Part shown: piece after piece, positions 6,328-50,731 of the stretch
How positions within the stretch are numbered: the first letter of the stretch is position 1
Layout: the number at the start of each line of letters is the position of its first letter
Assembly (NCBI GenBank): GCA_016180965.1
Contig: JACPAF010000001.1
Coordinates: 10,111-74,110, forward strand
Reading direction: 5' to 3'
Source of the DNA: Candidatus Aenigmatarchaeota archaeon
GTDB taxonomy: Archaea; Aenigmatarchaeota; Aenigmatarchaeia; JACPZZ01
Length of the DNA: 64,000 bases
Made by a program: the position numbers and the translations under genes
The notes under the pieces: generated by a model
What the model saw: the letters and a program-made list of their open reading frames with translations, nothing else
What the model was told of the DNA's origin: nothing
The model's database searches: none

Positions 6328-6367
6328 AACTGAAACAGATGCATACCAATAGCATCTGTTTCTAGTT
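6328..6367. repeat. tRNA-linked bulged palindromic hairpin (family copy)
   Basis: AACTGAAACAGATGC-ATACCAATA-GCATCTGTTTCTAGTT. The 3' end lies 5 nt (GCGAC) before tRNA-Lys +1. Confidence 0.8.
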
Positions 6368-6372
6368 GCGAC

Positions 6373-6469
6373 GGGCCCATAGCTCAGCCTGGTAGAGCAC
6401 CTGACTCTTAATTGAACTTTTGTTCATCGAGATATCAGGGAGTCGCGAGTTCAAATCTCGCTGGGCCCA
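6373..6469 (+). tRNA. tRNA-Lys-CTT: tRNA-Lys(CTT) with canonical 37/38 intron (6411-6433, 23 nt)
   Basis: Acceptor GGGCCCA/TGGGCCC, D arm GCTC..GAGC, anticodon arm CCTGA-CTCTTA|intron|A-TCAGG, T arm GCGAG-TTCAAAT-CTCGC. BHB has 3 of 4 central pairs. Confidence 0.9.
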
Positions 6470-6486
6470 ATTAAAGATGTTTTACT

Positions 6487-7404
6487 ATGATCTCCATAAA
6501 CTACACGTTCCTGGGCGATGAATCAATTGTTAAGGAATGGGGCAAGAAAGGAACTTCATCGGATATAACGATCTACGACCGCAAAGACACGGGCATTGTT
6601 AAAACATGGACACTGCCTACCGGATTTCCGGACAAAATACAATCTTTATTCCAAGCCATACAGCTTGGCGAATATGTTATTTTTCATGTATCCAAATTGG
6701 ACAAGTTCACGGGCGAGCAAATAATCGCGCTTGATGCTTTGCGAAAGGAAAAAGGTTTGTTGTGCCATTCTTACGAAGTTGATAGAAGCCTGCTGTTAAC
6801 AATGATAAAAGGAACTGTTGTTGAGAATTACAAGCTGGTGGAACTTGAGAATTTGAAAACGGAAATGGATTCGCTGGCTGCTATTCAAAAAGAAGGCGAG
6901 GCTAAAGTTGTGATAGACCATTCGTTCGAAGTTAAAGGCGTTGGCGCTGTGCTTCTGGGTAAATTGGACCGCGGAAAAATAAAAACTTACGACAATATGA
7001 AATTGTTGCCCGCGGGTTCCGAAGTAATGATAAAATCAATACAAATGCACGACGATACCGTAACGGAAGCATCGTCTCCAGCGCGCATTGGGTTAGCGAT
7101 CAAAGGTGTTGATGCAAGCGCTGTACAGCGCGGCGACGTTTTATGCAATTCTGCAGATTCCAAAGTTTCACAAGAAATAATTTTGGATTACAAACAAAAC
7201 AAATATTTTAAAGAGGATGTTAAAGAAGGCCAAACTTTCGTAGTTAATGTCGGAATGCAAATGAAGACCGCGAAAATAATTTCATCGGCTCCCATGAGGT
7301 TACAATTCATGAAACCGGTTGTTTTTGAAATCGGCGAAATTGCCGTAATATTAAGGCCGGAATCGCAGGGCGTTAGGATTGTCGGAAGTGGAAAGATAAG
7401 TTAA
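6487..7404 (+). CDS. EF-Tu/EF-1A-like protein with degenerate G domain (domain II beta-barrel retained)
   Basis: 305 aa. Central KVVIDHSFEVKGVGAVLLGKLDRGKIK...MIKSIQMHDD...ARIGLAIKGV...RGDVL matches the EF-Tu domain 2 pattern. I see no GxxxxGK[ST] P-loop in the N-terminal region. Confidence 0.6.
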   Translation: MISINYTFLGDESIVKEWGKKGTSSDITIYDRKDTGIVKTWTLPTGFPDKIQSLFQAIQLGEYVIFHVSKLDKFTGEQIIALDALRKEKGLLCHSYEVDRSLLLTMIKGTVVENYKLVELENLKTEMDSLAAIQKEGEAKVVIDHSFEVKGVGAVLLGKLDRGKIKTYDNMKLLPAGSEVMIKSIQMHDDTVTEASSPARIGLAIKGVDASAVQRGDVLCNSADSKVSQEIILDYKQNKYFKEDVKEGQTFVVNVGMQMKTAKIISSAPMRLQFMKPVVFEIGEIAVILRPESQGVRIVGSGKIS

Positions 7405-7454
7405 AAGTTTTTGACCGGATGTTTTATATATTTATTTGAAGAATAGCTTTTTTC

Positions 7455-7715
7455 ATGGTAGACCCCTACGTAGATAAGTTCAAAGACTTAAGTGTACTGG
7501 ACATAGAAACTGGGAAATTCGGTTTGCGTATAGGCTATGTAAACGGGAGCGGAAGGGCATTCATAGAGACGGATGCGGGCGAAGAACGCGTGTCTTACGT
7601 TAACCTGGGCATGCCTTCCGGCGGCTTATCTGCAGCATATGTTCTCAGCAGCCAGCTTAAGCGAGATCCGGGACTTTACAACTTCGGCAGAAGAAAAGAA
7701 GAAACACACGCCTGA
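7455..7715 (+). CDS. Hypothetical small protein
   Basis: 86-aa ORF in an otherwise empty gap. No motif recognised. Confidence 0.35.
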   Translation: MVDPYVDKFKDLSVLDIETGKFGLRIGYVNGSGRAFIETDAGEERVSYVNLGMPSGGLSAAYVLSSQLKRDPGLYNFGRRKEETHA

Positions 7716-7749
7716 TTCAATATTTCTATTCCAGATTTCAATTACTACA

Positions 7750-11767: not shown

Positions 11768-11816
11768 ATAACCTTGTCTGTTTAAGAAAAGGTTAATCAA
11801 AATATATACAATCGGT

Positions 11817-11943
11817 GCCTGGGTGGCTCAGTGGTAGAGCGCCAGAAATTTGGCGAAACTCATAAGGCGATGTATGAGTGTTGAGCTTATGCTATGATAA
11901 CTAAGACATCTGGAAGTCGTGAGTTCGATCCTCACCCCAGGCA
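11817..11943 (+). tRNA. tRNA-Met-CAT: tRNA-Met/Ile2(CAT) with two predicted introns (30/31: 11846-11857; second approx 11866-11908)
   Basis: Acceptor GCCTGGG/CCCAGGC, D arm GCTC-AGTGGTA-GAGC, T arm GTGAG-TTCGATC-CTCAC. Removing both inserts gives CCAGA-CTCATAA-TCTGG. The first intron has a clean BHB core (CGCC/GGCG with 3-nt bulges). The second BHB is relaxed (3 of 4 pairs), so its exact junction is uncertain. Confidence 0.7.
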
Positions 11944-13121: not shown

Positions 13122-13131
13122 ACGTGATTCA

Positions 13132-14777: not shown

Positions 14778-14844
14778 AACAATAAAATAGCCTCCGGAGA
14801 GATATTAATAAACTTTCCTTTAGAAAAGAAACAAATGACAGACC

Positions 14845-14881
14845 GAAACGGACGCATACACAATGACGTCCGTTTCTAGTT
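14845..14881. repeat. tRNA-linked bulged palindromic hairpin (family copy)
   Basis: GAAACGGACG-CATACACAATGA-CGTCCGTTTCTAGTT, ending 6 nt before tRNA-Thr +1. Confidence 0.75.
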
Positions 14882-14887
14882 AGGATC

Positions 14888-17567: not shown

Positions 17568-17671
17568 TGCGGTTACCGGGATTCGAACCCGGATTAAAAG
17601 CTGTCTCCGTTTTCCCCAAATTCAAGGAAAAGGCATGGGAAGCTTTTGTCCTGCCATTAGACCATAACCGC
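17568..17671 (-). tRNA. tRNA-Gly-CCC: tRNA-Gly(CCC) with canonical 37/38 intron (17603-17635, 33 nt)
   Basis: Reverse complement: GCGGTTA..AAAGC-TTCCCA|intron|A-GCTTT..CCGGG-TTCGAAT-CCCGG-TAACCGC-A. BHB central helix TTCC/GGAG with 3-nt bulges. Confidence 0.9.
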
Positions 17672-18356: not shown

Positions 18357-18409
18357 CTTATTAATATTTCTGAAGCAAACAGATGCTAAGTAAACTGAAT
18401 CATCGGTGG

Positions 18410-18490
18410 CTAGAAACATACGCTTAACAGCTAGAAGCATACCGTATACTGTATCGGTATGCTTCAGTTTACGACGCGTATGTTTCAGTT
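18410..18490. repeat. Nested pair of family hairpins upstream of tRNA-Leu
   Basis: Outer CTAGAAACATACGC...GCGTATGTTTCAGTT encloses inner CTAGAAGCATACCGTATACTGTATCGGTATGCTTCAGTT (18431-18469). Confidence 0.8.
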
Positions 18491-18512
18491 TCTCGATGAT
18501 TCTAACTGTAAC

Positions 18513-18733
18513 GCGGGGGTAGCCAAGCCCGGTCAAACTTGAGTGATGAGGTTAAGAAAACTGGCGCAACAACAAACTGACACATACATAGTATGTGTCT
18601 GGTTGCAATGCGCCTGTCTGAACAACCAATGACTAGAGGCGTCAGACTCAAGTTGAACTTTAGAAAAAAGTTTGATAGAAGAGGGAAATCTGATCTCCTA
18701 GCGAGTTCGTCGGTTCAAATCCGGCCCCCCGCA
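18513..18733 (+). tRNA. tRNA-Leu-CAA: tRNA-Leu(CAA) with D-loop intron (approx 18538-18635/7) and 37/38 intron (18653-18687)
   Basis: Exons join to GCGGGGGTAGCCAAGCCCGGTCAAA(GA)GGCGTCAGACTCAAGATCTGATCTCCTAGCGAGTTCGTCGGTTCAAATCCGGCCCCCCGCA, a typical archaeal class II tRNA-Leu. The D-loop intron has BHB core GTCA(18532-35)/TGAC(18630-33) with 3-nt bulges. Confidence 0.8.
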
Positions 18734-30736: not shown

Positions 30737-30770
30737 GGAAAAAATTAGTATTTAACCGCACGCGATCTAG

Positions 30771-30928
30771 CTAGAAATATGTGTTGACAGTAGCACATAT
30801 TTCAGTTAGTAGCTGAAAACAGTCACATACAAGATGTGACTGTTTTAGTTGTAGCTAGAAACATATGAATACCAATTGCATATGTTTCAGTTAGTTACAG
30901 CTAGACTCATACTTCGTATGAGTCAGTT
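30771..30928. repeat. Tandem array of four family hairpins directly upstream of tRNA-Arg
   Basis: H1 30771-30807, H2 30813-30850 (opposite bulge polarity), H3 30855-30892, H4 30901-30928. Flanks AG|CTAGA / CAGTT are conserved, stems differ but stay complementary. H4 ends 7 nt before tRNA +1. Confidence 0.85.
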
Positions 30929-30935
30929 TACAACA

Positions 30936-31051
30936 GGATCCGTAGCTCAGCCTGGACAGAGCAGCAGCCTCCTAACGAGCTTTTCCAAAAAGCTCGACCA
31001 AAAGAGAATGGAGATAGTTGAAGGTCGCGGGTTCAAATCCCGTCGGATCCG
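30936..31051 (+). tRNA. tRNA-Arg-CCT: tRNA-Arg(CCT) with canonical 37/38 intron (30975-31015, 41 nt)
   Basis: GGATCCG..GCAGC-CTCCTA|intron|A-GTTGA..GCGGG-TTCAAAT-CCCGT-CGGATCC-G. BHB core CTCC/GGAG. Confidence 0.85.
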
Positions 31052-31126
31052 TTGATAAAAGCGCATGTTCTGGTTTTGGCGGGCTACAATATATTATATA
31101 TCGCAAAAACGGCAAATCTTAAACCA

Positions 31127-39427: not shown

Positions 39428-39526
39428 GGCGTCACTAATAAGATAGTCAGATTTAAATAAAACTTCCGATACTTATCGGAACTTTACAGCCGAAAAGGAT
39501 GATGTATTACAAGTCCATATTGGTTT

Positions 39527-40162
39527 GTGTGCCCGAATAATTCTATCAAACTTGATCCCAACAAGGACGTACTAAAAGCTAGATTGTGCGGTTTTTTGGC
39601 TGCCGACGGCAGCGTTTTCATAAGAAAGGAGACCAGAACAGGAAAAATTCACCACTCTATGAGATTTTACCCTGACAACTTAGTACTAGCTCAACTTTTC
39701 AATGACGTGCTAAAAGGCGTTTACGGCAGAGAGGCGGCGATAAAGAGTATGGGAAATTATTACGCTCTATCTTTAACTAGCAAACAAGCTGTCACAGATC
39801 TTTTATCGATAGCCAGTTTCACGTCCAAAGGTTGGACATTTCCTGAAACCATTGTTACCAAAGATGCAAAAATCGAGTGGCTAAGAGCTTATTTTGATTG
39901 TGATGGTTATGTTGGTAAAAAATACATCCAGCTGCAATCGGTCAATGAAAACGGTATAAAAGTGATACAAAAACTGTTAGAAGATTTCGGAATAGAGTCC
40001 AAAATATACGATTATACGAGAAAGAACAAGTCCTGGAACATAAATTATCTGCTGAACATAAACAAGAGGGAAATGCGTATTAAATTTTTGAGAGAAATAG
40101 GGTTCAATCACCCATTAAAAAGGAAGAAATTGGAAAGTTTAATCAATGCCGAGGTCGCATAA
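39527..40162 (+). CDS. Free-standing double-motif LAGLIDADG homing endonuclease-like protein
   Basis: 211 aa, GTG start. Two LAGLIDADG motifs (LCGFLAADGSVF, LRAYFDCDGYVG). The last 15 nt overlap the 5' end of tRNA-Ser. Confidence 0.75.
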   Translation: MCPNNSIKLDPNKDVLKARLCGFLAADGSVFIRKETRTGKIHHSMRFYPDNLVLAQLFNDVLKGVYGREAAIKSMGNYYALSLTSKQAVTDLLSIASFTSKGWTFPETIVTKDAKIEWLRAYFDCDGYVGKKYIQLQSVNENGIKVIQKLLEDFGIESKIYDYTRKNKSWNINYLLNINKREMRIKFLREIGFNHPLKRKKLESLINAEVA

Positions 40163-40320
40163 CCAGGTCAGTGCACCAGATTAAAAAAGGTGATTCTCGA
40201 AAACTGGCGGGCGCAAACAGCTAGAAGCAACAGTAAACCGAAACATGTCATAGACATGTTTCAGTCTGAACCTGCTTCAGTTGGCGATTGCCCATGAGGG
40301 TTCAAATCCCTCCCTCGGCG
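40148..40320 (+). tRNA. tRNA-Ser-CGA: tRNA-Ser(CGA) with 30/31 mini-intron (40180-40194) and 73-nt hairpin insertion in the variable arm (40214-40286)
   Basis: GCCGAGG-TC-GCAT..GTGC-A-CCAG|15 nt|T-CTCGAAA-ACTGG-CGGGCG|73 nt|ATTGCCCAT-GAGGG-TTCAAAT-CCCTC-CCTCGGC-G. Discriminator G. The mini-intron has BHB core CACC/GGTG. Confidence 0.7.
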
Positions 40321-40990: not shown

Positions 40991-41824
40991 TCATTCCCAA
41001 AATTCCTTGATTATTTCCTCGGATATCCGCGTTATGACGCGCTCAGGCACGAAAATTTCCATTGAAATGGTCTTGCCGTATTTTATTTTTTTCAATTCTT
41101 TCACGGTCCTGCGGAAATCTATTGACGCGATCCCGACCGGCAGGTGCTCGTCCATTTTCCCGTGGTTGTCGTGCATGTGTATGTGCTGGATGCGTTTACC
41201 GAATTTTTTGATGTGGTTCGAAATAGATTTCATGCCTCCGCCTATGAACGCATGGCCGATGTCAAGATTCACAGCGAGCCCGTCGACTTTTGAAATTATT
41301 TTTTGGAAGTCCTTTATCGATGACATTTCTGTGGTGTTTTCCAACATCACGACCATCGAATCACCGGCGTAATCCACCAGCTTCTTCATGTTCTCGATGT
41401 AGTTTGATATAACCTCTTTCAGCGTGCCGCGATCCGATAGCATCATGCTCTGCGAATGTGCGTGGAAAGTTATTTTTTCTATATTTATCCTCTTTCCCGC
41501 GTCTATGACCTTTTTACATTCTTCTAACCACGCGTCGCGCACTATTTCGTGCGGGCTGCCAAGATCTATCCACCACGCCGCGTGCCCGAGCGCGAACATC
41601 CTATGTTTTTTGATTATCCTGTTTATTTTGCCCGCCCTATTCGCGATTATTTTCGGCGACCCTTCCGGCTCCTCAATCCCGATTTCTACGAAATCAAAAT
41701 TAAGCGCCGCGATTTCACGTATTTCCTGCATCAAGTCCAATGAGGGATTTGTAGTTGTGCCGAACTTTGGCAGGCCTGGTTGATTGAAACGCATCTTGGA
41801 TGCGTTTCTGTCTGTCTCTACCAT
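40991..41824 (-). CDS. Sugar phosphate isomerase/epimerase (xylose-isomerase-like TIM barrel)
   Basis: 277 aa. FVEIGIEEPE, ITFHAH, LENT, NLDIGHAF, IHMHDNHG metal-site pattern. Confidence 0.7.
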   Translation of the reverse strand: MVETDRNASKMRFNQPGLPKFGTTTNPSLDLMQEIREIAALNFDFVEIGIEEPEGSPKIIANRAGKINRIIKKHRMFALGHAAWWIDLGSPHEIVRDAWLEECKKVIDAGKRINIEKITFHAHSQSMMLSDRGTLKEVISNYIENMKKLVDYAGDSMVVMLENTTEMSSIKDFQKIISKVDGLAVNLDIGHAFIGGGMKSISNHIKKFGKRIQHIHMHDNHGKMDEHLPVGIASIDFRRTVKELKKIKYGKTISMEIFVPERVITRISEEIIKEFWE

Positions 41825-41888
41825 GGAATTAGTTCTCCTAAAGCCAATTTAAATAGAAGCCTACAAAACGGTTTGTTCGGTATGTTGC

Positions 41889-41978
41889 AACAGACGCTTG
41901 GAGTATGCGTCTGTTTCGGTCAACCGCTGAATCATATGCATTTGGGAACTAGACTCGTATGATAGTATGAGTCTTGTT
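41889..41978. repeat. Two family hairpins upstream of tRNA-Val(CAC)
   Basis: AACAGACGC-TTGGAGTAT-GCGTCTGTT (41889-41915) and CTAGACTCGTATGA-TAG-TATGAGTCTTGTT (41949-41978). The latter ends 5 nt (ACGAC) before tRNA +1. Confidence 0.75.
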
Positions 41979-42056: not shown

Positions 42057-42066
42057 ATAGTCGATT

Positions 42067-42102
42067 GAAGCATACCGATACAATCATAGGCATGTTTCTA
42101 GT
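42067..42102. repeat. Family hairpin (imperfect) downstream of tRNA-Val(CAC)
   Basis: GAAGCATACCGATA-CAATC-ATAGGCATGTTTCTAGTT. A further CTGAAACTTTCTT-CA-AAGAAAGTTTGTT hairpin lies at 42109-42136. Confidence 0.65.
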
Positions 42103-42134
42103 TACTGACTGAAACTTTCTTCAAAGAAAGTTTG

Positions 42135-42626: not shown

Positions 42627-42686
42627 TTAGACCTACGAACTAATAATTCAAGCGTAGAAGATAAATAAGTTAAAGTCGACTGAAAC

Positions 42687-42759: not shown

Positions 42760-42971
42760 CTGGCAGACTGATGCATATCTCGGATATGCGTCTGATCGTA
42801 ACCGCCCTTTTGTGATCAAAAGCGCTGGCGGAAAAAAATAATTATACGAATGCGTGTAAACAGGAAACGTTAGGCTGTGGGAAAGCAAGTTTTGTAATAC
42901 AAAACTGCTGCAGTTTATCTGAAGATAAACTTGCAAACCTCAGGTTTTCGTGGTCGACTGACGCAGAGGTA

Positions 42972-43012
42972 AACTGAAGCATATCGATAGTGCATACGGT
43001 ATGCTTCCAGTT
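42972..43012. repeat. tRNA-linked bulged palindromic hairpin (family copy)
   Basis: AACTGAAGCATATCG-ATAGTGCATA-CGGTATGCTTCCAGTT, ending 5 nt (GTGAC) before tRNA-Ala +1. Confidence 0.8.
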
Positions 43013-43017
43013 GTGAC

Positions 43018-43106
43018 GGGCCGGTAGATCAACGGTAGATCGCCACATTGGCATTGGAAAGAGACCAAAATTGTGGAGGCTTCGGGTTCGAATCCCGACC
43101 GGTCCA
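43018..43106 (+). tRNA. tRNA-Ala-GGC: tRNA-Ala(GGC) with canonical 37/38 intron (43054-43070, 17 nt)
   Basis: GGGCCGG/CCGGTCC with G3:U70. CCACA-TTGGCA|intron|T-TGTGG. BHB core TTGG/CCAA. Confidence 0.9.
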
Positions 43107-43309
43107 AATAACCTTTTAAAAAAAGGTTAATCAAAACTTAAGCTTGACCAAAATTCGTAAGACCCAAGCAAAGCTCATAAAACTGCTGCAACAATTCTAA
43201 TTTGCCCGATGAAGACACCCAATGGGCGGACTGAGGGCGCTATTTTTGCGTACCAGACACAAAACATGTTTTATTAAGAGTTTTGGATAAAAGTTAATCA
43301 GGGAGCCTT

Positions 43310-44494
43310 ATGGAAAGTTTTGCTGTTTTGCTTATAGCTTCGGTATTGTTCCTAGGATTCCTGTTTTTAGGAACTTACGCAATGGACGCCCAATATAACA
43401 GCGCCAGCGGCGGGTTCTGGGGCGGGCTATTTGGGCCTGCTCCTAAAAAAACATCGCTGATGAGGATCGATTTAACCTCGTTCCCGCAGTTCTTTATCGG
43501 ATTTACCAAGGAAGACAAAGCACGCACAGTCAGTTATGAGGATTTTTCCCTGGGCTCAGAATCGTCGATGAACATCAAGAATATTTTGTCACAAGACATA
43601 TCGAACGGGCTGTTTTCTAACGACGAATTATCACTGGATGTAAAGCTCGAACAGGCTACAGTTAGCGAGGCGACTGGAGCGACACTGGTGTTTGAAGTTG
43701 TGGATACTAACAATTACGGCAATCTTGTAGCCTCGTGGAACGGTAAAGAATATTTCAACGGCAAACCTCCCACGGGCAAGATTTCGTTAAAGCTTCCCAA
43801 AGAGTCGCTGAAGAGTGAGAATAAACTTGAAATAAAATCCACGGGCCCCGGCGCAAGGTTCTGGGCCAACTCCGTGTATTCACTGAAAAACATCAAACTG
43901 GATTTGCTGACAGTTTCCAAGAGGACCCTTTTCTTCGAGGTGTTCCCGGAAGAAATGTCGTCGTGGAGTTCTGGCGTACTCAATTTTAAGCGCGCGGATT
44001 ATTCTTCACAGAACGGAGTGATAAAAGCCTACGTGAATGGAAAACTTGTTTACAACAGATTTCCGAATGAGGGGGATAAAATAGAAATCGGACCCAATGA
44101 CATAAGGTCCGGAAGCAACCTGATAAGCTTGGAATCTTCAGCCGGGACTTTCAACCTAAAAAATATTTTCTTAAACGTGTTTTTGTGGAAAAACAGGACA
44201 TCTGGCATAACCAACTCGTTTGTCTTGGATGAAAGCGATGCAATGCTGTTAAACAAAACCGGATATACAGGAGTCATAGATATAACGATGGGCGAGATCC
44301 TGAAAGCCGCTCCGCTGGAAATAAGATTTTCCGAGAACAAGACGGTCAAATCTATATTCATTACGGAATTGAAAGACCGCGTTGTCGCAACTTTCGACGA
44401 GGACCAGGTTGTGGCTGGAAACAACACGATGACATTCGCAACTGACGGTTCCATGAGGATAGCTTCTGTTGACGTTTTCATCCAGGGTCGATAA
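43310..44494 (+). CDS. Secreted/anchored hypothetical protein
   Basis: 394 aa. N-terminal TM/signal, beta-rich remainder. First gene of a same-strand cluster. Confidence 0.55.
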   Translation: MESFAVLLIASVLFLGFLFLGTYAMDAQYNSASGGFWGGLFGPAPKKTSLMRIDLTSFPQFFIGFTKEDKARTVSYEDFSLGSESSMNIKNILSQDISNGLFSNDELSLDVKLEQATVSEATGATLVFEVVDTNNYGNLVASWNGKEYFNGKPPTGKISLKLPKESLKSENKLEIKSTGPGARFWANSVYSLKNIKLDLLTVSKRTLFFEVFPEEMSSWSSGVLNFKRADYSSQNGVIKAYVNGKLVYNRFPNEGDKIEIGPNDIRSGSNLISLESSAGTFNLKNIFLNVFLWKNRTSGITNSFVLDESDAMLLNKTGYTGVIDITMGEILKAAPLEIRFSENKTVKSIFITELKDRVVATFDEDQVVAGNNTMTFATDGSMRIASVDVFIQGR

Positions 44495-44496
44495 AA

Positions 44497-45822
44497 TTGG
44501 TCACGAAAGAAGAGCTGATAGAAAGATTCCGAGCGAAACAAAACCCTGAGAACCGCGAGGAACCTGCGCCCGCGGAGAGCCCATGGAAAAAAATTTTATT
44601 CCATTTTATTCTGGCTCTCGTTTATTTCATAACAATTTCCTGGTTCAAGTTCTGGACATTCGGGCTTTTCTGGATAATAATTTTCGTGCTAATCGGGCTG
44701 TGGGTATTTTCGATAAATGTTCCGAGTGTTTCGGAATTGATTATGTGGTCCATCATGATTGTTGTTGTGGTTGGCGGGATATTATGGCTATTCACATTAA
44801 GCCCGTGGCGGCCTGCGATAAACACCCAAGTCAACGCATTCATGACAGGTTTTAATAAAATTTCGGATACTATCGAAGAATACAAAGCCGGGCTTGATTG
44901 CATATTCAACCCGGGGCTGGAAAGATGCTTAAAAACTCCGGAAGCCGGCACGAAGCAAAGCTCGAGGAAAGGACTGGAAATAACAACGTTATCTTCCGAG
45001 TCTTCGGTGAGCGTCGGCAAGACAGCAAGATTATTCGCAGCCGTAAGAAACGACGGCGAGTCCGACGCGATTGTGAGATCGGCGCGAATGTACGGCGGGG
45101 AAGGCAGAACGTTCATGATGGCCGGCGCTCCGGAATGCACAGGCTGTGCGATAGGCATAACAAACGAAAAAATAATTCCAAATTCCAGGCGCGATTTGAC
45201 AGCAGACTTGATTGTGCCATGTGAAAAAACGTCCTCATTCCCATTTAGTTTGAACGTGGAATACGGATACAAAGTTACCGCGTCCATGCCTGTCGATGTA
45301 CTAAATTCAAAAGATTACGATGATAAGACCGCTGCCAAAGAAGCTTTCCTTTCCCAGCCTTCGGCAAGCTCGTCGAGCGGGCCTGTCATAGCAAGCATAG
45401 TCATAGGAGTGGAAGGCTACCAGCCGATAAAGGGCGGGACGAAAAACATACTGTTTGCCAAGTTAACGAACCTTGGACCGGGCACGTTCAAGTTGGAGAA
45501 TGCGAAAGTTTCCGTACAACCGGAAACTCAATTCATTGTTAGCAACTGCAAAATCAACGGCGCACCTGTTGGAAAAGACATAACAAACCTCGTTGACCCG
45601 TCAGATAGATCTTACTCTACAGAGAAATTTATTTCGCTGAGCTGTGACATGGACGTCAAAGATGTGGACGGGCAAAAAAGATTTATCGCGACAATTGACG
45701 CCAATTACTTTTACAACACAACAAGATCGTCGGAAATGGGCGTGGATCCGGCTGGCTATGACGAATGCAGCGCATCATCAAAAACTTCCACAATTGATAC
45801 GACCGAACCGCCAACTCCGTAA
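44497..45822 (+). CDS. Membrane protein with extracellular CARDB-like domains
   Basis: 441 aa, TTG start 2 nt after the upstream stop. Three or four TM helices, then beta-rich domains (LEITTLSSESSVSVGKTARLFAAVRNDGES). Confidence 0.55.
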   Translation: MVTKEELIERFRAKQNPENREEPAPAESPWKKILFHFILALVYFITISWFKFWTFGLFWIIIFVLIGLWVFSINVPSVSELIMWSIMIVVVVGGILWLFTLSPWRPAINTQVNAFMTGFNKISDTIEEYKAGLDCIFNPGLERCLKTPEAGTKQSSRKGLEITTLSSESSVSVGKTARLFAAVRNDGESDAIVRSARMYGGEGRTFMMAGAPECTGCAIGITNEKIIPNSRRDLTADLIVPCEKTSSFPFSLNVEYGYKVTASMPVDVLNSKDYDDKTAAKEAFLSQPSASSSSGPVIASIVIGVEGYQPIKGGTKNILFAKLTNLGPGTFKLENAKVSVQPETQFIVSNCKINGAPVGKDITNLVDPSDRSYSTEKFISLSCDMDVKDVDGQKRFIATIDANYFYNTTRSSEMGVDPAGYDECSASSKTSTIDTTEPPTP

Positions 45823-45857
45823 CGCATAGCAGCCAGAAGCATATCGCAATCTTCCAG

Positions 45858-46658
45858 TTAAGTTAACACGGATAACCTTAAAGTGTCGCGCAAACCCGGA
45901 GCGAGGCCCAGCATCAAAACTATTATTTTGAAAAATGAACGGGCCTGCTTGTCTTTTATCTCCCTGTCGAAAGAATAAAGCACGAATCCTATTACCAATA
46001 GTTTTAGCGGATACATCACGATCGGCCCGAAAATTCCCATCAAAAAAGTCGGGAGGAAATGCTGTTCCCTGTAGCCGAAAAATGCTATCGAAACAAAAGT
46101 TGACGAAGCATCGAGCATGTGAGCGGCCAAAATGTAAAAATTTTCTTTTGTTATTAATTTCGGCAGCTTCTTGTGAAGCATGTATACCAGATACGACGAT
46201 GCCGCGAACGATGCGGCTACATAAAAAACGCCGATAAGATTTTGGGCGCGCGAAAAAATAAAATATGTTATGATGAATGCGGGTATAAGCGCTATCGCGG
46301 AAAAGGTTTTCCAATATTCCACCTTGGCGTATTTCTTAACGAACATTGAAAATGCGAAGGATGCGAGGAACAAAGACAATAACAAAACATAACGAAGCGG
46401 CGTTTCCAGTATTGTAATATTGATCGATCCCATGTCCTGCAATACCCGCACAGCCGCGGAAAGGAACATGAATGAAGATAATGCAAACGCGAGCTTCCGG
46501 TCTATCCCCACATATTTCCTGAACACAACGTACAAAACATACGCAACGGAAATTATCAACAATGTGTGCACAAATGTTACGGACGGGCTGAAAGAATAGG
46601 TCGGTGCTGTCAGCGGATTCACTATGTAATTATCAATTAAATCTACCAAAACGGGCAT
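45858..46658 (-). CDS. Polytopic membrane protein (DUF63-like)
   Basis: 266 aa, about 7 TM. Overall resemblance to archaeal DUF63 proteins (tentative). Confidence 0.5.
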   Translation of the reverse strand: MPVLVDLIDNYIVNPLTAPTYSFSPSVTFVHTLLIISVAYVLYVVFRKYVGIDRKLAFALSSFMFLSAAVRVLQDMGSINITILETPLRYVLLLSLFLASFAFSMFVKKYAKVEYWKTFSAIALIPAFIITYFIFSRAQNLIGVFYVAASFAASSYLVYMLHKKLPKLITKENFYILAAHMLDASSTFVSIAFFGYREQHFLPTFLMGIFGPIVMYPLKLLVIGFVLYSFDREIKDKQARSFFKIIVLMLGLAPGLRDTLRLSVLT

Positions 46659-46690
46659 GGTTTAATATTTGGGCGCGGACTTATAATATC

Positions 46691-47557
46691 ATGAAATTTT
46701 ATTCGGTGACCGCGATTTTGCTGGTTATTTCCACTATCATGGTTTCCGGCTGCACGGACACAAACGATGGAACTCCAGCGGTAAAAAACAATGAAATTGT
46801 AATACTGGAAAATGTCGAGGCTGTGCCCAACGAAATAAAACCGGATAGGAACTTCGCGGTCAGCGGGTTTGTTACCAACAAAGCCGCGGCAAAAACCAGC
46901 AACGTGCAAATTTCGCTTGCGGATTATTGTTCTTCGGTTTTTGACGTCAGCAAGACGTCGTGTGCGTTGACGCAGTCAAACGGATATTCTGCGTGTTTTT
47001 TTGACCTCAACCTGGACGCGAGTAAAAAATTCCAGTGGGATTTCAAGGCGCCTCCGGCAAGCCGCACAGCCGGCCAGGATTTCGATTGCAACATAATTGT
47101 TAAAACAAATTACTCCTATACAAGCCACGGTTCTGTTGGAGTCGTTCTAGCCAACGACGCGGAGATAGCTGCGCGCGAAAACGGGCCCGCGCCTGTAACG
47201 GGCGACGGGCCGGTTAAAATTCATATCACGGTGGATTCGGCGCAACCGATCGGGAAGGATGAAACGTTCGACGTCAAAATAATACTCAAAAACGAAGGCG
47301 AAGGCGAACTTGAAGGCTCGATATCAGAAGGAAATTTCAAGTACACGGCGCCGCCGGACTTTACCGGAAGCTGCGACACACCAGCGGAAATAATCATATC
47401 GGACGCTTCCAAAGAGTCCGATCCTTTCTATTGCACTTTCACGACGCCGAACTTGCTCCCTCCGCGGGTTACGAAATTTATAACGGCCGATGTAGTATAT
47501 TCGTACAAATTCACAACCATGCTGCCTGTGAAGCTGAAGGTAACTAAGCAATCTTAA
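46691..47557 (+). CDS. Putative lipoprotein, CARDB-like
   Basis: Start at the ATG at 46691. MKFYSVTAILLVISTIMVSGC lipobox-like signal. KIILKNEGEGELEG CARDB-like strand pattern. Confidence 0.6.
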   Translation: MKFYSVTAILLVISTIMVSGCTDTNDGTPAVKNNEIVILENVEAVPNEIKPDRNFAVSGFVTNKAAAKTSNVQISLADYCSSVFDVSKTSCALTQSNGYSACFFDLNLDASKKFQWDFKAPPASRTAGQDFDCNIIVKTNYSYTSHGSVGVVLANDAEIAARENGPAPVTGDGPVKIHITVDSAQPIGKDETFDVKIILKNEGEGELEGSISEGNFKYTAPPDFTGSCDTPAEIIISDASKESDPFYCTFTTPNLLPPRVTKFITADVVYSYKFTTMLPVKLKVTKQS

Positions 47558-47611
47558 GGTTTAAATAAGTGTGAATTAAATCATTATAATACGGATTATT
47601 TGGTGCGATAA

Positions 47612-49063
47612 ATGAAATTGGCTCTATTTGGTATCATTTTGGCTGTGATAGTTTCTGGTTGTACGGGTACAGGTGATTCAGGCAACACAGGAACAGGCGG
47701 ATCGGTTATCATAAAATCATTTTCTGCCGACGAAACAAATTTACAAGGCAACGACAGGACAACGCTTTCAACTGAAATTATCAACACAGGAGACTCAAAA
47801 GCCACCGCTGTTAAAATACAATTATTAGATTTGGATACGGCTTGCGCGCAACCTTCATGCGATTCGACGGAAACACAGTGGGGGTTGTCCAGCGGAAAGA
47901 CGAGCGATGTACTCACCGATTTGAGGATAAACACGCCGGGTGAAGAGGCCATAGCAAAACAATACAACTGGCGCGTGCAATCGCCAAAATTGCCGGCTAA
48001 TTTGCCACAGACCTACGATGCCAAAGCGAGAGTTTCATTCGGATATTCGACCACAGCTATCAAACAAATAAAAATTGTCACCCTATCTGAATACCAGAGG
48101 TTAAAAACGAACGGACAGACGTTGCCTGTTACTACAGCACAGCCGTCTAACGGGCCTTTAAAGATCGACGTAAGAGTGGCAGAGCCCGTCAGGATTGAAG
48201 AGGGTTCCACTACGTTCTTGCTTGTCATTGAAGTTACTAACCTGATTGGCGGAACCACGTTCCTGGCCGATAACCCGAACGACGTGTCAAAATGGAACCT
48301 GGCCAATTTGAAATTAACGCTTCCTTCAGGGCTTGCGATGGCAGAAACGAGCGGGGATTGCGCAGCCATCACAAGCAGCGTCACCATCGAGCTTTCAAAG
48401 GGCAAAAGTTACAAAACGCAATGCGAAGTCAAGACCACAACAAACATCCCGGTTTCGGTGGACAAGACCGTCAACGTTAAAGCTGATTACGGGTACTTTG
48501 TCGAATCCAAACTGTCCGTGCCTATATCGGTTATAGGAAAATCCAATTATGTCCCGCCTTCGGGCGGCGGTGCACCAGGACAGGCCGGAACAGGCACAGT
48601 AACACCTCCCGCGTCCGGCGGCTCAACTGCACCGGATACCGAACCGCCTAACACGGTTAGAAATATACAAGTCCAAAAATTCGCAGGACAACCCGGAACA
48701 GCGAGCGCGGGCAAGTGGCAATACACAATAAGTTTCCTCGAGCCATCCGACAATGTGGGCGTTGCGGGTTTTGAAATATATGTAGGCACAATCCAGCCAG
48801 CCACAGGAACTTGGAATACTGCTACTCTGGATGCCAGCAATGAAGTTAAGAAACAAGGCCTTGCATCCAATATACCGCTCGGTTCGAGAACACCTCAAGG
48901 AGGAACTGTGGAATCATTCCCACCCAACGGCGTGGCTAGATTGCTTTTAGATCCGAATACATCATATTGGATAGGCATTCTTGCTGTGGATGCCAGTGGA
49001 AACAGGGGAGACTTGTCAACATCCGCGGGTTCTGTAATCCAAATACAAACAGGTTCTTTCTAG
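47612..49063 (+). CDS. Putative lipoprotein with CARDB-like domains, Pro/Gly linker and FN3-like C-terminal domain
   Basis: 483 aa. MKLALFGIILAVIVSGC signal. STEIINTGDSKATAVKIQLLD. Linker PPSGGGAPGQAGTGTVTPPASGG. C-terminal VRNIQVQ...FEIYVG...YWIGILAVDASGNRG. Confidence 0.6.
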   Translation: MKLALFGIILAVIVSGCTGTGDSGNTGTGGSVIIKSFSADETNLQGNDRTTLSTEIINTGDSKATAVKIQLLDLDTACAQPSCDSTETQWGLSSGKTSDVLTDLRINTPGEEAIAKQYNWRVQSPKLPANLPQTYDAKARVSFGYSTTAIKQIKIVTLSEYQRLKTNGQTLPVTTAQPSNGPLKIDVRVAEPVRIEEGSTTFLLVIEVTNLIGGTTFLADNPNDVSKWNLANLKLTLPSGLAMAETSGDCAAITSSVTIELSKGKSYKTQCEVKTTTNIPVSVDKTVNVKADYGYFVESKLSVPISVIGKSNYVPPSGGGAPGQAGTGTVTPPASGGSTAPDTEPPNTVRNIQVQKFAGQPGTASAGKWQYTISFLEPSDNVGVAGFEIYVGTIQPATGTWNTATLDASNEVKKQGLASNIPLGSRTPQGGTVESFPPNGVARLLLDPNTSYWIGILAVDASGNRGDLSTSAGSVIQIQTGSF

Positions 49064-50337
49064 AATTTTTGTTTTGCGAATTCGCCCAGGCCTTTCTGCC
49101 CTGATTTTTGCATCTCAAACGAGCCTTCGAACAACGGAACTCCGTAGACGCCGTCGTAGCCCGGCTTAAATTTTAGCTCCCCATTACGCGATTTTATTAT
49201 TGCGTTTGCGATTTTTTCGTGCGTGATCTTTTTTAACTCGTTTTCAGGGACGTTCATCAACACGTTTAACTCTGTGCCAAATTGCGAGATTATTTTATCG
49301 TGTTCTTCGGTGACTTTTTTAGAGTATAATGCGTTGACACCGGTGACGTGCGATATTATCTCATACAACGGCAATAATGTTTTGAATGGTATCGCGTTTT
49401 TAGGAACAAAACCAACAGGACGGTCGGCTAATTGTTCAACACGACTGAGAACGCCTATTGTTAATCCCCGTTTGCAGCGCGGGCAAATACCATTTAATTT
49501 TTTTGTTTCAGACGGCTCTAAAGAAACGTTACAGTCTTTGTGGCCATCTAAATGGTATTTTCCATAATTCGGGTCGCACTCAATTGTATATAAAAACTTT
49601 TCCTTGTCCTTGTTTTTTATTGCATCGAAGATTTTGTTGTATGTGGGGTTTTCAATATCAAATACGTTCGCCTCTCTTCCTAACCTCCAAGGCCATGGTG
49701 AATGTGCGTCGGAATTTGAGATTAATGCAAACTTGTCCAAACTTGAAATGTTCCAGCACATCGCGGGATCCGCTGATAGGCCTGTTTCGATCGCGAAAAT
49801 GTTTTTTGTCTGATCCTGAAAACATTCTTCCACTGAGTTAAAACCGGATTTCGAACCGAAAATTGAAAACCATGGCGTAAACGAATGGGCTGGTATGATA
49901 AATGCATCTTTAGATATTGACACCACCAGTTCTGTAAATTCCGGACAGGTTATGTTTGTTAATATCGGACGTCCGTCTGCGGAAAGGTTTCCGTATCTGC
50001 TTAATTTTTCATTAATTTGGTCTACGATTTCGAAACTTGGAGCGAAAATCATGTTGTGGACTTTTTTGCTCACGCCGTTGACATAGTAAATCAGCGAAAC
50101 TTCCGATGTCAGCATAAAAGCTGTTTTCGTTTTGTTGTCCGTGAACAATCCCGTGCCATTAATTTCCTTCAATGAAGATTTCAAATCTTCCAAATGTTTC
50201 GGGTGTGTGAAATCGCCTGTTCCGAGAATGTCCAAGCCTTTCGTTTCTGCGAATTTTCCAAGCGTGTGTATGTTCATCTGGGGTGATGTGGCGCGGCTGT
50301 ATTTCGAATGTATCTGGAGGTCTGCGATAATTTTCAT
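49060..50337 (-). CDS. endoQ: Endonuclease Q-like PHP-domain nuclease with zinc ribbon
   Basis: Start moved to the ATG at 50337 (MKIIADLQIHSKYSRATSPQM...GTGDFTHP). CPRCKRGLTIGVLSRVEQL zinc ribbon. The 37 extra N-terminal codons in the track ORF overlap tRNA-Ile. Confidence 0.7.
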   Translation of the reverse strand: MKIIADLQIHSKYSRATSPQMNIHTLGKFAETKGLDILGTGDFTHPKHLEDLKSSLKEINGTGLFTDNKTKTAFMLTSEVSLIYYVNGVSKKVHNMIFAPSFEIVDQINEKLSRYGNLSADGRPILTNITCPEFTELVVSISKDAFIIPAHSFTPWFSIFGSKSGFNSVEECFQDQTKNIFAIETGLSADPAMCWNISSLDKFALISNSDAHSPWPWRLGREANVFDIENPTYNKIFDAIKNKDKEKFLYTIECDPNYGKYHLDGHKDCNVSLEPSETKKLNGICPRCKRGLTIGVLSRVEQLADRPVGFVPKNAIPFKTLLPLYEIISHVTGVNALYSKKVTEEHDKIISQFGTELNVLMNVPENELKKITHEKIANAIIKSRNGELKFKPGYDGVYGVPLFEGSFEMQKSGQKGLGEFAKQKF

Positions 50338-50372
50338 AGAGAATATTCCTTTGCCAGATGTAAAAATAGAAG

Positions 50373-50574
50373 TGGGCCCGACCGGATGATCGGCTGACAC
50401 ATCGCAGCTAGGCACACACAAGATGTGTGCCGATTTGCCGTGTGTCAAGCTTTCGAACCGGCGACCATGCCGTTGCTATCCATTGCAATTACGGCGTCTA
50501 CGCAGCTTAGTTTCGCAAGCAAATGCTTGCGGGCCTTATAAGACCGTCGCTCTACCAAGCTGAGCTACAGGCCC
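50373..50574 (-). tRNA. tRNA-Ile-TAT: tRNA-Ile(TAT) with three predicted introns (38/39: 50496-50535; variable loop: 50467-50489; T-loop 59/60: 50387-50451)
   Basis: Reverse complement gives GGGCCTG-TA-GCTC-AGCTTGGTA-GAGC-G-ACGGT-CTTATAA|40 nt|GCCGT-A|23 nt|GGTC-GCCGG-TTCGAA|65 nt|T-CCGGT-CGGGCCC-A. BHB cores: TTAT/GTAG (two G.U), GCCG/CGGC (perfect), TTCG/CGAT (3 of 4). Confidence 0.7.
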
Positions 50575-50586
50575 ACTTTGTCGACC

Positions 50587-50622
50587 GAAGCATACCGATA
50601 CAGTATACGGTATGCTTCTAGT
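50587..50622. repeat. Family hairpin just 5' of tRNA-Ile (minus-strand sense)
   Basis: GAAGCATACCGATACAGTATACGGTATGCTTCTAGTT. The reverse complement of 50588-50622 is identical over 35 nt to 18431-18465. An additional ACTGGCG..CGCCAGT hairpin lies at 50633-50657. Confidence 0.85.
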
Positions 50623-50731
50623 TGTAACTAAAACTGGCGATTTTTGAATGCGCCAGTTTCTATTTACCACGCTTTAATCATTTTTTACGCAAGCTTAAAA
50701 AGATAAAAGCACGCCGTCTCATTGTAAATGT

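Follow-up and report, generated by a model that had tools for sequence, protein, structure and literature searches.

Bacterial REP elements and REPINs (RAYT, Y1 HUH) are among the described systems closest to the hairpin family reported here. Both are short, imperfect, non-coding palindromes that are extragenic, occur in many copies, lack a target duplication, and fall into subfamilies with paired stem changes. One-base bulges and G.T pairs, as found in REP elements (PMC3733652), are also shared, as is the REPIN-RAYT trait of a master sequence that stays constant over long divergence. However, our hairpins lack a GTAG or CGTC end tag, no RAYT gene with hairpin copies on its flanks was found, and the copies nest in loops and form tandem arrays rather than inverted doublets. 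The host is an archaeon (DPANN), and copies stand at a fixed distance from tRNA ends and inside tRNA insertions.

The IS200/IS605 elements and the PATEs of archaea likewise move by means of hairpins with an unpaired base and without target duplication, and the genomes that carry our hairpins also contain Y1 transposase genes. However, the resident IS200-type genes bear other hairpins, each of our elements consists of one hairpin without distinct left and right ends, and a conserved target tetranucleotide could not be established. MITEs and Rickettsia palindromic elements (RPE) are also small, non-coding, multiplied in the genome, and tolerated in RNA genes and other genes, whereas our hairpins lack a target-site duplication and have arms that differ from the ends of the window's DDE transposase element (the window is the whole 64-kb stretch of DNA that was analysed). 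IS1397 and ISKpn1 target REP loops and group IIC introns target terminator stems, a strong preference for landing in or beside a stem-loop that our family shares; those elements code for protein or a ribozyme, whereas here the inserted element is the hairpin alone. Yeast Ty3 and Dictyostelium TRE, eukaryotic retroviral-type elements guided by Pol III factors, also insert a short, constant distance away from the start of tRNA transcription, where tRNA flanks offer safe sites in a compact genome. The present element differs in being a 47-bp palindrome with many non-tRNA sites.

Results

Architecture of the hairpin unit

The unit is ~47 bp long and consists of a ~7-nt flank, an 11-bp arm, a ~10-nt loop, an 11-bp arm, and a ~8-nt flank, with a single bulged base located 4 bp above the stem foot. 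The bulge appears as CTAG versus CAG across the arms and both polarities are present; a sequence-only reading of this DNA had claimed as much, and the copies inspected bear it out. The family has no protein-coding capacity. Near-identical "master" copies, with arms GAAGCATAYCG, are found in seven Aenigmatarchaeota genome assemblies. There are ~31 distinct stems, mostly single-copy, the arms of which are still perfectly paired; decay of dead copies alone would not give this pattern, which counts against the mobile-element reading favoured below. Both the loops and entire inner copies are found in either orientation between the arms, which is expected because these are DNA palindromes. An Rfam search of the window and 53 related loci returned tRNAs only, and the hairpin matches no known RNA family. 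The earlier statement that the element belongs to no described class thus holds for Rfam, but in kind the hairpins resemble REP, PATE, and attC-type folded-DNA elements closely.

Integron attC sites, which act as a folded strand, likewise combine a conserved structure with a variable stem, an unchanging foot, and an extrahelical base that confers polarity. The hairpins could accordingly serve as recombination sites of a site-specific system, integron-like or other, but we consider this very improbable. The core sites RYYYAAC and GTTRRRY are missing, gene cassettes do not separate the copies (the arrays are hairpin on hairpin without ORFs), the scan of window ORFs revealed no integrase, and the copies are dispersed across many contigs.

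Copies in the 64-kb window

The window was scanned without filters using a covariance model, R1, built from 72 copies, with a cut-off of E < 0.01. R1 returned 15 distinct significant sites with E-values as low as 1e-17, and nested and degenerate copies come on top of these. The copies are as follows.

6326-6368, plus strand: single hairpin with arms GAAACAGATGC, loop ATACCAATA, and a T bulge in the 3' arm (R1 50.8 bits, E 4e-13; fold z -6.4); 5 nt (GCGAC) lead from its end to tRNA-Lys(CUU) +1 at 6373.
14839-14882, plus strand: single hairpin with arms GAAACGGACG (R1 E 9e-13), followed by 6 nt (AGGATC) and tRNA-Thr +1 at 14888.
18392-18507, plus strand: triple-nested hairpin (-53 kcal/mol, z -8.0) with outer arms GAATCATCG/CGATGATTC (18397-18405 and 18494-18502), middle arms GAAACATACGC (18413-18423 and 18476-18486), and an inner master copy (18428-18471, R1 65.8 bits); from the outer flank end, 5 nt (GTAAC) to tRNA-Leu +1 at 18513.
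18573-18605, plus strand: short-loop "class B" hairpin GACACATAC-ata-GTATGTGTC (R1 E 5e-7) within a larger hairpin of the tRNA-Leu D-loop insertion; conserved in the L055 orthologue.
28195-28280, plus strand: free-standing composite with master-type arms GAAGCATACCG...CGGCATGCTTC (fold z -6.6), the loop of which carries a double hairpin of a second family (28216-28263); the same composite occurs in L014, L058, and L068.
30768-30930, minus strand: tandem array of four hairpins found by R1 (30768-30809, 30810-30851, 30852-30894, and 30898-30930; fold z -9.0); the last has a 3-nt loop and stands 7 nt before tRNA-Arg(CCU) +1 at 30936.
40214-40286, plus strand: nested pair, outer arms CTAGAAGCA.../...TGCTTCAGTT and inner hairpin 40234-40268, in the loop of the tRNA-Ser variable-arm stem (GGGCG/TGCCC); the outer copy is in the same place in three other genomes.
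41780-41814, plus strand: short-loop hairpin GAAACGCATC-ttg-GATGCGTTTC (R1 E 3e-6), ~170 nt upstream of tRNA-Val(CAC).
41881-41923, minus strand: hairpin AACAGACGC-ttggagtat-GCGTCTGTT (R1 E 1e-4).
41927-41978, plus strand: orphan left arm GAATCATATGC, then a short-loop hairpin GACTCGTATGA...TATGAGTC; stem end 10 nt from tRNA-Val(CAC) +1 at 41984 (flank TTGTT plus spacer ACGAC).
42061-42104, plus strand: imperfect copy with one G.T and one A.C mismatch (R1 E 6e-5), beginning 5 nt downstream of the tRNA-Val(CAC) 3' end.
42764-42798, plus strand: short-loop copy GATGCATATC-tcg-GATATGCGTC (R1 E 2e-4), beginning 4 nt downstream of the tRNA-Val(UAC) 3' end.
42970-43013, plus strand: master-type copy with one T.G pair (R1 E 2e-12); 5 nt (GTGAC) from its end to tRNA-Ala(GGC) +1 at 43018.
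45830-45860, minus strand: degenerate, internally deleted copy GAAGCATATCG caat CTTCCAGTT (R1 E 0.5) between convergent ORFs.
50395-50447, minus strand: nested hairpin in the T-loop insertion (intron) of tRNA-Ile(UAU), a minus-strand gene at ~50373-50574; the L010 orthologue has the simple outer hairpin only.
50581-50624, plus strand: master copy (R1 62 bits) just upstream of the same tRNA-Ile(UAU), with 8 nt separating its flank from +1; the L010 orthologue has a further copy nested in the loop.

The palindrome family proposed by the sequence-only reading is thus real, with hairpins where it had placed them, and R1 added 41780-41814 and 42764-42798 to its list. The outer arms of the nest at 40214-40286 are genuine, as are the nest at 50395-50447 and the composite at 28195-28280. 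What had been described as a nested pair at 18410-18490 is nested, with real outer arms, but is a triple nest with a wider span. The degenerate copy given as 45834-45859 corresponds to the weak copy at 45830-45860, while another proposed at 39461-39484 was not recovered by R1 and is not counted. The spacers to tRNA +1 had been read correctly (5 nt for Lys, Ala, and Val-CAC, 6 nt for Thr, and 7 nt for Arg) and recur in other genomes. The same is true of the identities of tRNA-Lys(CUU) at 6373 and tRNA-Ala(GGC) at 43018, both of which are miscalled by ARAGORN without intron handling. The claim that no copy lies inside a coding sequence holds with one exception: 41780-41814 runs into the 5' end, as called mechanically, of ORF 40991-41824. 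This start is probably over-extended, since the Pfam domain starts only at residue 36.

The sole point in favor of chance palindromes or assembly artefacts is that the sequences come from metagenome assemblies. This explanation can be dismissed: the strict pattern matched three times in the window versus 0.00 expected by chance, R1 E-values are as low as given above, and the same sequences appear in independent assemblies from several studies. The fold z-scores of the hairpins range from -4.2 to -9.0.

Spread and mobility in related genomes

The matches of a strict 20-base pattern comprised 53 loci spread over seven Aenigmatarchaeota assemblies (JACQNZ01 alone has at least 19) and ~18 chance matches in bacteria, as expected. 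A metagenome scan yielded 16 additional family loci. The 32-nt master core is identical across genomes, whereas orthologous DNA is only 76 to 81% identical.

The unit behaves as a discrete block that is gained or lost without target-site duplication. A clean 47-bp indel separates L092 from L036, the flanks being 81% identical and free of a target-site duplication; such filled/empty pairs are compatible with insertion or with precise deletion. The spacer after ArgRS holds a hairpin in L019 and none in the window, tRNA-Ile(UAU) differs in presence or absence at three places between the window and L010, and a triple nest in L008 corresponds to a simple hairpin in L031. Similarly, hairpins are present or absent among orthologues in the leaders of tRNA-Val(UAC), tRNA-Ser, an AGCCCC tRNA, and others.

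Copies prefer the loops of other hairpins: they lie in older copies, in hairpins of introns, and in the variable-arm stem of tRNA-Ser. A quarter of them (25 of 98) lie between inverted repeats (at least 7 bp, within 16 nt) versus ~1.5 expected, and uniform young master copies are nested in diverse older copies, up to three levels deep. Copies also abut both ends of tRNA genes, each time leaving ~10 nt between stem and adjacent helix, and fill ordinary protein-gene spacers.

Association with tRNA genes

The tie to tRNA genes claimed earlier is strong in the window, where 10 of the 12 clusters have a tRNA gene within 100 nt compared with 37% of non-coding DNA (P = 0.0014), but many copies in the relatives are not near tRNAs. 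Only 14 of 55 master copies have a tRNA T-loop motif within 300 nt versus 16% of random non-coding positions, and most master copies lie between protein genes, whatever the orientation of these to each other, at 0 to 70 nt from an ORF end. Because the family also occupies protein-gene spacers, it is not targeted to tRNAs alone.

The spacing upstream of tRNA genes is nevertheless narrow. In ~25 of 36 tRNA genes (window plus relatives, eight genomes) the stem ends 9 to 12 nt (mode 10) upstream of +1, and the linker to +1 is conserved as R-Y-D-A-C. The tRNA-adjacent copies also show strand-specific signals in the tRNA sense: 7 to 8 G.U versus 2 A.C mismatches and a loop reading ATAC... in ~10 of 12. 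In addition, the bulge is in the 3' arm in ~16 of 23. Taken together, these three biases hint at some constraint at the RNA level, and the narrow spacing could have its source in selection instead of targeting.

These regularities, and arms that remain complementary across many different stems, are what would be seen if a hairpin ~5 nt before +1 were selected as part of the pre-tRNA or promoter, the other copies being spill-over. Such a leader module might be a landmark for the nuclease that forms the 5' end, or it might fix where transcription starts. A pure A/T box is found at -38 to -26 in the tRNAs that lack a hairpin; its position implies a transcription start at approximately -5, and this is where the elements end. 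However, the orthologous Val-UAC, Ser, and AGCCCC tRNAs occur with or without the hairpin, 11 of the 36 tRNA genes have none, and most near-identical copies lie between protein genes. The ~10-nt distance from stem to neighbouring helix also separates nested copies and recurs downstream of tRNA 3' ends, places at which neither a promoter nor 5' processing is involved. We therefore consider selection as a leader module unlikely, although a leader-processing role for hairpins is possible.

The more specific proposal of a promoter in which the loop serves as the TATA box is not supported. Loops of 3 nt without A/T-rich sequence occupy the same place (Arg, Val-CAC, and L044), so the loop is not a TATA box, and the presence or absence of hairpins among orthologous tRNAs likewise speaks against it. 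No equivalent of the A/T box lies inside the hairpins, and no A/T run of 6 or more was found from -50 to -8 in hairpin-bearing tRNA genes.

Copies inside tRNA insertions

The hairpin could instead be an intron-like RNA cassette that is cut out at both borders by an endonuclease (broad-specificity splicing or other). The cassette would be harmless anywhere in a stable-RNA transcript; to spread, it would first be reverse-spliced or ligated into RNA, which would then undergo reverse transcription and recombination. Its ends do exactly abut tRNA +1, the tRNA 3' end, the D- and T-loop exon borders, and the Ser variable-arm stem, and the D- and T-loop copies need removal for a working tRNA. The G.U pairs are strand-biased, and the R orientation, as RNA, turns the foot mismatch into a G.U pair. 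Archaeal bulge-helix-bulge tRNA introns are comparable in occupying non-canonical sites (D-loop, variable arm, and T-loop) and in the recurrence of related sequences. However, minimum-energy folds revealed no bulge-helix-bulge (3-nt bulge, 4 bp, 3-nt bulge) at the element borders, both orientations occur upstream of tRNAs and elsewhere, many copies lie outside RNA genes in spacers of convergent protein genes, and no reverse transcriptase was seen. In all resolvable cases, the tRNA-internal copies were inserted into the loop of a pre-existing intron hairpin or variable-arm stem. An RNA-level cassette is thus decidedly unlikely. The related suggestion of intron-derived mobile hairpins is right in that copies occur in tRNA introns and the Ser variable arm, but these copies do not form the intron itself.

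Candidate enzymes

IS200/IS605 Y1 transposases, genes for which occur in two of the assemblies, are a candidate enzyme class for the family. No transposase was linked to the hairpins; the Y1 genes found are flanked by different, GC-rich hairpins (CCCCGCAC-taaa-GTGCGGGG at resident IS200-type genes), and one is a broken gene. Across ~450 kb, we saw no autonomous parent element. The second hairpin family shows filled/empty pairs of 48 to 50 bp and interrupts a tnpA (transposase) coding sequence.

Discussion

Among the roles proposed by the sequence-only reading, that of a mobile mini-element at tRNA 5' ends is the best supported (filled/empty pairs, nests, seven genomes, and sharp spacing), with the correction that its sites are not limited to tRNAs. 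Our current hypothesis, to which we assign a probability of roughly 0.65, is that the hairpins are small non-coding mobile DNA palindromes of the REP/PATE kind that are moved by an enzyme encoded elsewhere. The folded single strand of the element would be recognised by this enzyme, and the bulge would tell it which strand is held, as with the HUH/Y1 transposases of IS200/IS605-RAYT or the integron integrases. The element may then be pasted into transiently single-stranded DNA, for instance in hairpin loops or at the borders of tRNA genes, which are structured and highly transcribed. Copies would be retained in leaders, trailers, and introns, which the tRNA can do without, because normal tRNA processing cuts those parts away, and a tight, self-contained hairpin would leave tRNA folding undisturbed. 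No host function would be required. The family is proper to one clade of Aenigmatarchaeota, tiny DPANN archaea of groundwater, and looks like an undescribed archaeal counterpart of the bacterial REP-type mini-elements rather than a tRNA promoter.

Anatomy and distribution of the hairpin family

For detection of the hairpins under study (family 1, palindromes of about 47 bp with a single bulged base), 72 copies were aligned in a single orientation, a covariance model (R1) was built from the alignment, and the window was scanned unfiltered, which returned 15 sites at E<0.01. The feature is genuine, and the hairpin sequences match those described in the sequence-only reading, whose account of it was accurate. 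Its list of copies was amended, as two had been missed (41780-41814 and 42764-42798) and the palindrome at 39461-39484, which lies outside the 15 sites, was dropped. The elements before tRNA-Leu that it had taken for a nested pair are indeed nested, but form a triple nest (18392-18507) whose outermost flank stops 5 nt before tRNA-Leu +1. Fold energies of the window elements are 4 to 9 standard deviations under those of shuffled controls, and the strict pattern was matched three times in the window against 0.00 expected.

Once copies are oriented by their bulge, the consensus reads (N)GTAAACT, GAAGCATACCG, a loop of ~10 nt (ATACAGTATA or its complement), CGGTATGCTTC, T, and AGYTG(TT). The foot pairs AACT with AGTT and the bulge is the extra T, which appears in the opposite orientation as the A of CTAGAA. 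The core measures 32 bp and the whole unit 47 bp. A short-loop form (GACNCATAC, 3 nt, GTATGNGTC) carries the same flanks. Among simple copies, 33 distinct perfectly paired stems were counted in 111 copies, with two abundant master forms, one paired change apart, whose share is inflated because both served as search bait. Covariation was rejected as proof of an RNA structure, since the alignment was pre-selected for perfect stems and its counts thus show stem diversity rather than selection; an identical picture would arise if one arm served as the template for the other at the DNA level. Two partial sequences were noted in the window. An orphan arm-like stretch, CTGAAGCAAACAGATGC, with no partner arm near, occupies 18370-18390 directly 5' of the triple nest and may be a remnant copy. 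Directly before tRNA-Val(UAC), GACTGAAAC (42674-42686) resembles the left-arm foot; the hairpin is absent there, and the orthologues in the related locus L044 carry it in full.

A pattern scan covering one genome per species placed family 1 in seven Candidatus Aenigmatarchaeota (DPANN) assemblies, mostly from groundwater, with the window's own genome outside these seven. One of the related assemblies, JACQNZ01 (GCA_016202815.1), contains 19 or more strict copies in addition to diverged ones, and the loci nearest to the window share 76-90% identity with it over orthologous stretches. Most of the near-identical "master" copies in the related genomes (arms GAAGCATAYCG) reside in short spacers between convergent, divergent or tandem protein genes, in many cases with only 0-25 nt between copy and ORF end. 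A tRNA T-loop motif was found no more than 300 nt away for 14 of 55 master copies and 27 of 43 diverged copies, as compared to 16% of random non-coding positions; both counts are lower bounds because tRNA detection misses heavily interrupted genes, and the finder applied to the loci (T-arm plus acceptor stem) missed genes with T-loop insertions, so that tRNA proximity is underestimated. Of the 12 clusters in the window, 10 are no more than 100 nt from a tRNA gene, versus 37% of non-coding DNA (P=0.0014). The tie to tRNA genes is genuine, strong in the window and sharp in its spacing, but it is not exclusive, as many master copies lie between protein genes.

Interrupted tRNA genes of the window

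The window is archaeal DNA of ~45% G+C that includes housekeeping genes for IleRS, ArgRS, ribosomal protein S8e, Nop5 and fibrillarin. It contains 11 tRNA genes, eight of which carry insertions, up to three per gene and several at non-canonical positions (D-loop, variable arm, T-loop), so that genes reach 220 nt.

Insertion-bearing tRNA genes of the window
6373-6469, tRNA gene
11817-11943, tRNA gene
17568-17671, tRNA gene
18513-18733, tRNA-Leu, located by hand and folding
30936-31051, tRNA gene
40148-40320, tRNA-Ser
43018-43106, tRNA-Ala
~50373-50574, minus strand, tRNA-Ile(UAU), located by hand and folding

The Rfam tRNA model found nine of the 11 genes, missing Leu and Ile(UAU), and ARAGORN without intron handling returned only five, calling Lys(CUU) an Ile tRNA and Ala(GGC) a Pro tRNA, both wrongly. 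As a practical warning, hairpin repeats inflate and disguise tRNA genes, several of which these two tools missed or miscalled. Several protein genes were also noted. Just 3' of the palindrome at 39461-39484 is a free-standing ORF (39527-40162, plus strand) whose 211-aa product resembles LAGLIDADG-type homing endonucleases; its end, as called, runs over the opening bases of tRNA-Ser (40148). A T2SSE secretion-type ATPase gene (59808-63794, plus strand) is split by a LAGLIDADG-containing intein. Long ORFs without any Pfam match, up to 1285 aa, occupy 31052-34909, 43310-45822, 46604-49063 and 49060-50340.

Evidence for mobility

Comparison of orthologous sites with and without an element (filled and empty sites) gives evidence that family 1 is mobile. 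Here, loci from related Aenigmatarchaeota assemblies are denoted by L-numbers. Gapped alignments revealed such sites; a split-BLAST search gave none. L092 contains the 47-bp block GTCAACTGAAGCATACCGGTACAGTATACGGTATGCTTCTAGCTGTT, which the orthologous site of L036 lacks; the flanks are 81% identical, and no target-site duplication accompanies this indel. In the spacer past ArgRS, a hairpin follows the stop codon by 7 nt in L019 and the window has none. The tRNA-Ile(UAU) genes of the window and L010 differ at three positions in whether an inner hairpin is there: in the loop of the leader hairpin, in that of the anticodon-intron hairpin and in the T-loop insertion. At one site, L031 has a simple hairpin and L008 a triple nest, and the leader hairpin is present or absent among orthologous tRNAs. 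The 32-nt master core is identical across all seven assemblies within neighbouring DNA that is only 76-81% identical, which points either to recent activity in each lineage or to a cognate protein that keeps the sequence constant. Flipped loops and flipped whole inner copies were observed as well, an expected outcome when the two arms of a DNA palindrome recombine.

A second mobile element (family 2) is a double hairpin of 48-50 bp, in which NNNAGGAAAC...GTTTCCTNNN stands next to NNGAAAAYC...GRTTTTCNN. It behaves like family 1, with filled/empty pairs in L041/L099 and in the window (~56432-56482) versus L010. One copy splits the tnpA coding sequence in L075, one resides in the loop of a canonical tRNA-Gly intron hairpin, and others sit in the loops of family-1 copies, e.g. 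at 28195-28280. A third recurrent hairpin, NACCTTTT-NNN-AAAAGGTNA followed by ATCAAAA, forms the core of canonical-position tRNA introns and is found outside tRNAs at several loci. Family-2 insertions into this third hairpin were seen in L041/L099 and in L068.

Sites of family 2 and of the third hairpin
28216-28263, window, family 2
~56432-56482, window, family 2
~2920-2967, L075, family 2
1183-1230, L041, family 2
~7560-7605, L068, family 2
6401-6425, window, third hairpin in a tRNA intron
18655-18690, window, third hairpin in a tRNA intron
30976-31000, window, third hairpin in a tRNA intron
43109-43135, window, third hairpin just after tRNA-Ala
~11790-11812, window, third hairpin just before the tRNA gene at 11817

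Search for the mobilising enzyme

No ORF associated with family 1 was found near the copies. Nor did about 450 kb of sequence yield an autonomous element that uses the arms as its terminal repeats: no arm pair there encloses more than ~90 nt, and no long-cargo form was found. The multi-copy proteins beside the copies were glycosyltransferase, lectin-domain and HAD paralogues only, with no transposase among them. Y1 transposase genes are present in at least two of the assemblies, one gene being broken; the first query was an IS608 TnpA sequence, and the match was confirmed by the Pfam Y1_Tnp annotation in the protein database. Within the loci searched, no family-1 copy lies within 1 kb of the Y1_Tnp genes of L028, L075 and L078, and the sole family-1 match in L075 is ~1.7 kb from tnpA. 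The IS200-type tnpA genes (L028, 597-1100; L075, 2720-3380) have no adjacent tnpB and are bounded by GC-rich hairpins of their own (CCCCGCAC-taaa-GTGCGGGG on the 3' side), which differ from family 1.

The window encodes a DDE transposase of 378 aa with IS240/IS66-like domains (minus strand, region 52606-53860), probably an insertion sequence, with a 69-nt A/T-rich palindrome (52606-52674) at the 3' side of the gene. This element (52668-53804) was rejected as the parent because its ends are unrelated to the family-1 arms. A viral origin was likewise discarded, the three viral-contig matches being unrelated terminators of 61% GC. The lack of a target duplication is in line with single-strand (HUH/Y1) transposition, as is the dependence on a bulged hairpin, and both speak against a MITE of the DDE type; by analogy, we infer that family 1 may move by such a single-strand mechanism. 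Family 1 is most likely a set of palindromic mini-elements whose mobilising enzyme is encoded elsewhere.

Placement at tRNA genes and the question of a promoter

At ~25 of 36 distinct tRNA genes, counting nested copies added by eye, a family-1 stem ends 9-12 nt before +1 (mode 10), the gap being made up of the flank (T)AGTT and a 5-nt linker, R-Y-D-A-C. Hairpins that start 2-9 nt past tRNA 3' ends were also seen. The stem of an inner copy is ~10 nt from the arms of the enclosing copy on both sides, and the tRNA-Ser copy keeps the same gap to the variable-arm stem. Because this gap recurs at tRNA ends, in nests and in the variable arm, the element acts alike beside any helix, which argues for a structural placement rule rather than a promoter rule.

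In the usual archaeal promoter geometry, an A/T box at -38..-26 leads to a transcription start near -5. A pure A/T run at -38..-26 precedes 10 of 12 tRNAs without a hairpin (including window tRNAs 11817, 17568, 40148 and 42687); with the implied start ~5 nt before the mature 5' end, their natural leader would be very short. In hairpin-bearing tRNA genes no A/T run of 6 or more was found between -50 and -8, and 3-nt-loop hairpins sit at the same place before tRNAs. The suggestion that the loop serves as a TATA box was therefore abandoned, the hairpins themselves holding no A/T run, and the hairpin does not fit an archaeal BRE/TATA promoter, whose A/T-rich box is centred ~26 nt before the start. 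Where a tRNA gene has a single hairpin, the A/T box is 6-8 nt upstream of the hairpin, so transcription must begin in or before it and the leader must be removed.

Copies adjacent to tRNAs show a polarity. In the tRNA sense, mismatches comprise 7-8 G.U versus 2 A.C (P about 0.05-0.09), ~10 of 12 loops read ATAC..., and most bulges fall in the 3' arm. This polarity is weak evidence for retention of the RNA fold in transcribed copies, which could be of use either because a closed hairpin leaves tRNA folding undisturbed or because some enzyme recognises the fold. Two rival readings are kept, a processing role of the tRNA-adjacent hairpins, which we consider unlikely, and an RNA-cassette mechanism, which we consider somewhat less likely still.

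Copies within tRNA insertions

Family-1 copies were found in the D-loop insertion of tRNA-Leu, in the variable arm of tRNA-Ser (four genomes), and in the anticodon and T-loop insertions of tRNA-Ile. In every resolvable case, the copy lies within the loop of a hairpin that exists copy-free in a relative. Archaeal introns of the bulge-helix-bulge type have a 3-nt bulge, a 4-bp helix and a 3-nt bulge at both splice sites, which family 1 lacks; four pre-tRNAs were folded, with exon-intron junctions paired by hand, and no such motif was found at the element borders. Instead, when pre-tRNA-Ile, -Leu and -Ser and the elements are folded, a 1-nt bulge is seen together with internal loops measuring ~4x5 or 7x7 nt. 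As the host hairpins pre-exist and the bulge-helix-bulge is absent, family-1 hairpins enlarge existing insertions, and no hairpin was found to have created a new intron among the resolvable cases. The hairpins could also be structure-recognised excisable cassettes, cut by an endonuclease at both borders in stable RNA, to yield a mature tRNA 5' end without RNase P where the hairpin is 5 nt before +1 and a new non-canonical intron where it is in the tRNA body. We regard this as quite unlikely; if true, it would be a live example of archaeal tRNA introns arising from mobile DNA.

Comparison with known systems and significance

Family 1 resembles REP/REPIN-RAYT systems as short imperfect extragenic palindromes in many copies per genome. 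However, its flanks (GTAAACT ... TAGYTG) lack the GTAG or CGTC end tag, and copies occur singly, as nests or as tandem arrays rather than as the inverted doublets of REPINs and BIMEs. A RAYT would be a single-copy gene flanked by the repeats; in the loci searched, the Y1_Tnp genes of L028, L075 and L078 have no family-1 copy within 1 kb. MITEs leave a target-site duplication, which the L092/L036 indel lacks, and share terminal inverted repeats with an autonomous IS, whereas the ends of the DDE element and of the IS200-type genes are unlike the family-1 arms. PATEs, derived from IS200/IS605, have hairpins resembling those of the resident IS and insert 3' of a fixed tetranucleotide. Family-1 hairpins differ from the resident IS200-type ones, and a single clean empty site (L036) bears on the target motif. 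Integron attC cores (RYYYAAC / GTTRRRY) are missing from the flank consensus, with no ORFs between arrayed copies and no integrase among the window ORFs. CRISPR repeats are identical and regularly spaced by unique spacers, whereas family 1 is dispersed, its sole array consisting of four different hairpins 4-8 nt apart. The window and 53 loci, searched at the gathering thresholds of Rfam families (C/D sRNA and others), gave only tRNA matches.

In bacteria, mobile repeats of this small, palindromic sort are well documented. Literature searches returned no description of them in DPANN archaea and nothing equivalent to family 1, and the combination of loop nesting with fixed docking at tRNA ends is most likely new for archaea. 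What is unusual is the joint occurrence of loop nesting, fixed-distance docking at both tRNA ends and residence in the insertions of interrupted tRNA genes. Family 1 thus offers a natural system for asking how minimal hairpin elements pick their targets, which enzyme moves them, and whether the non-canonical tRNA introns typical of several archaeal lineages grow through the input of mobile hairpins.
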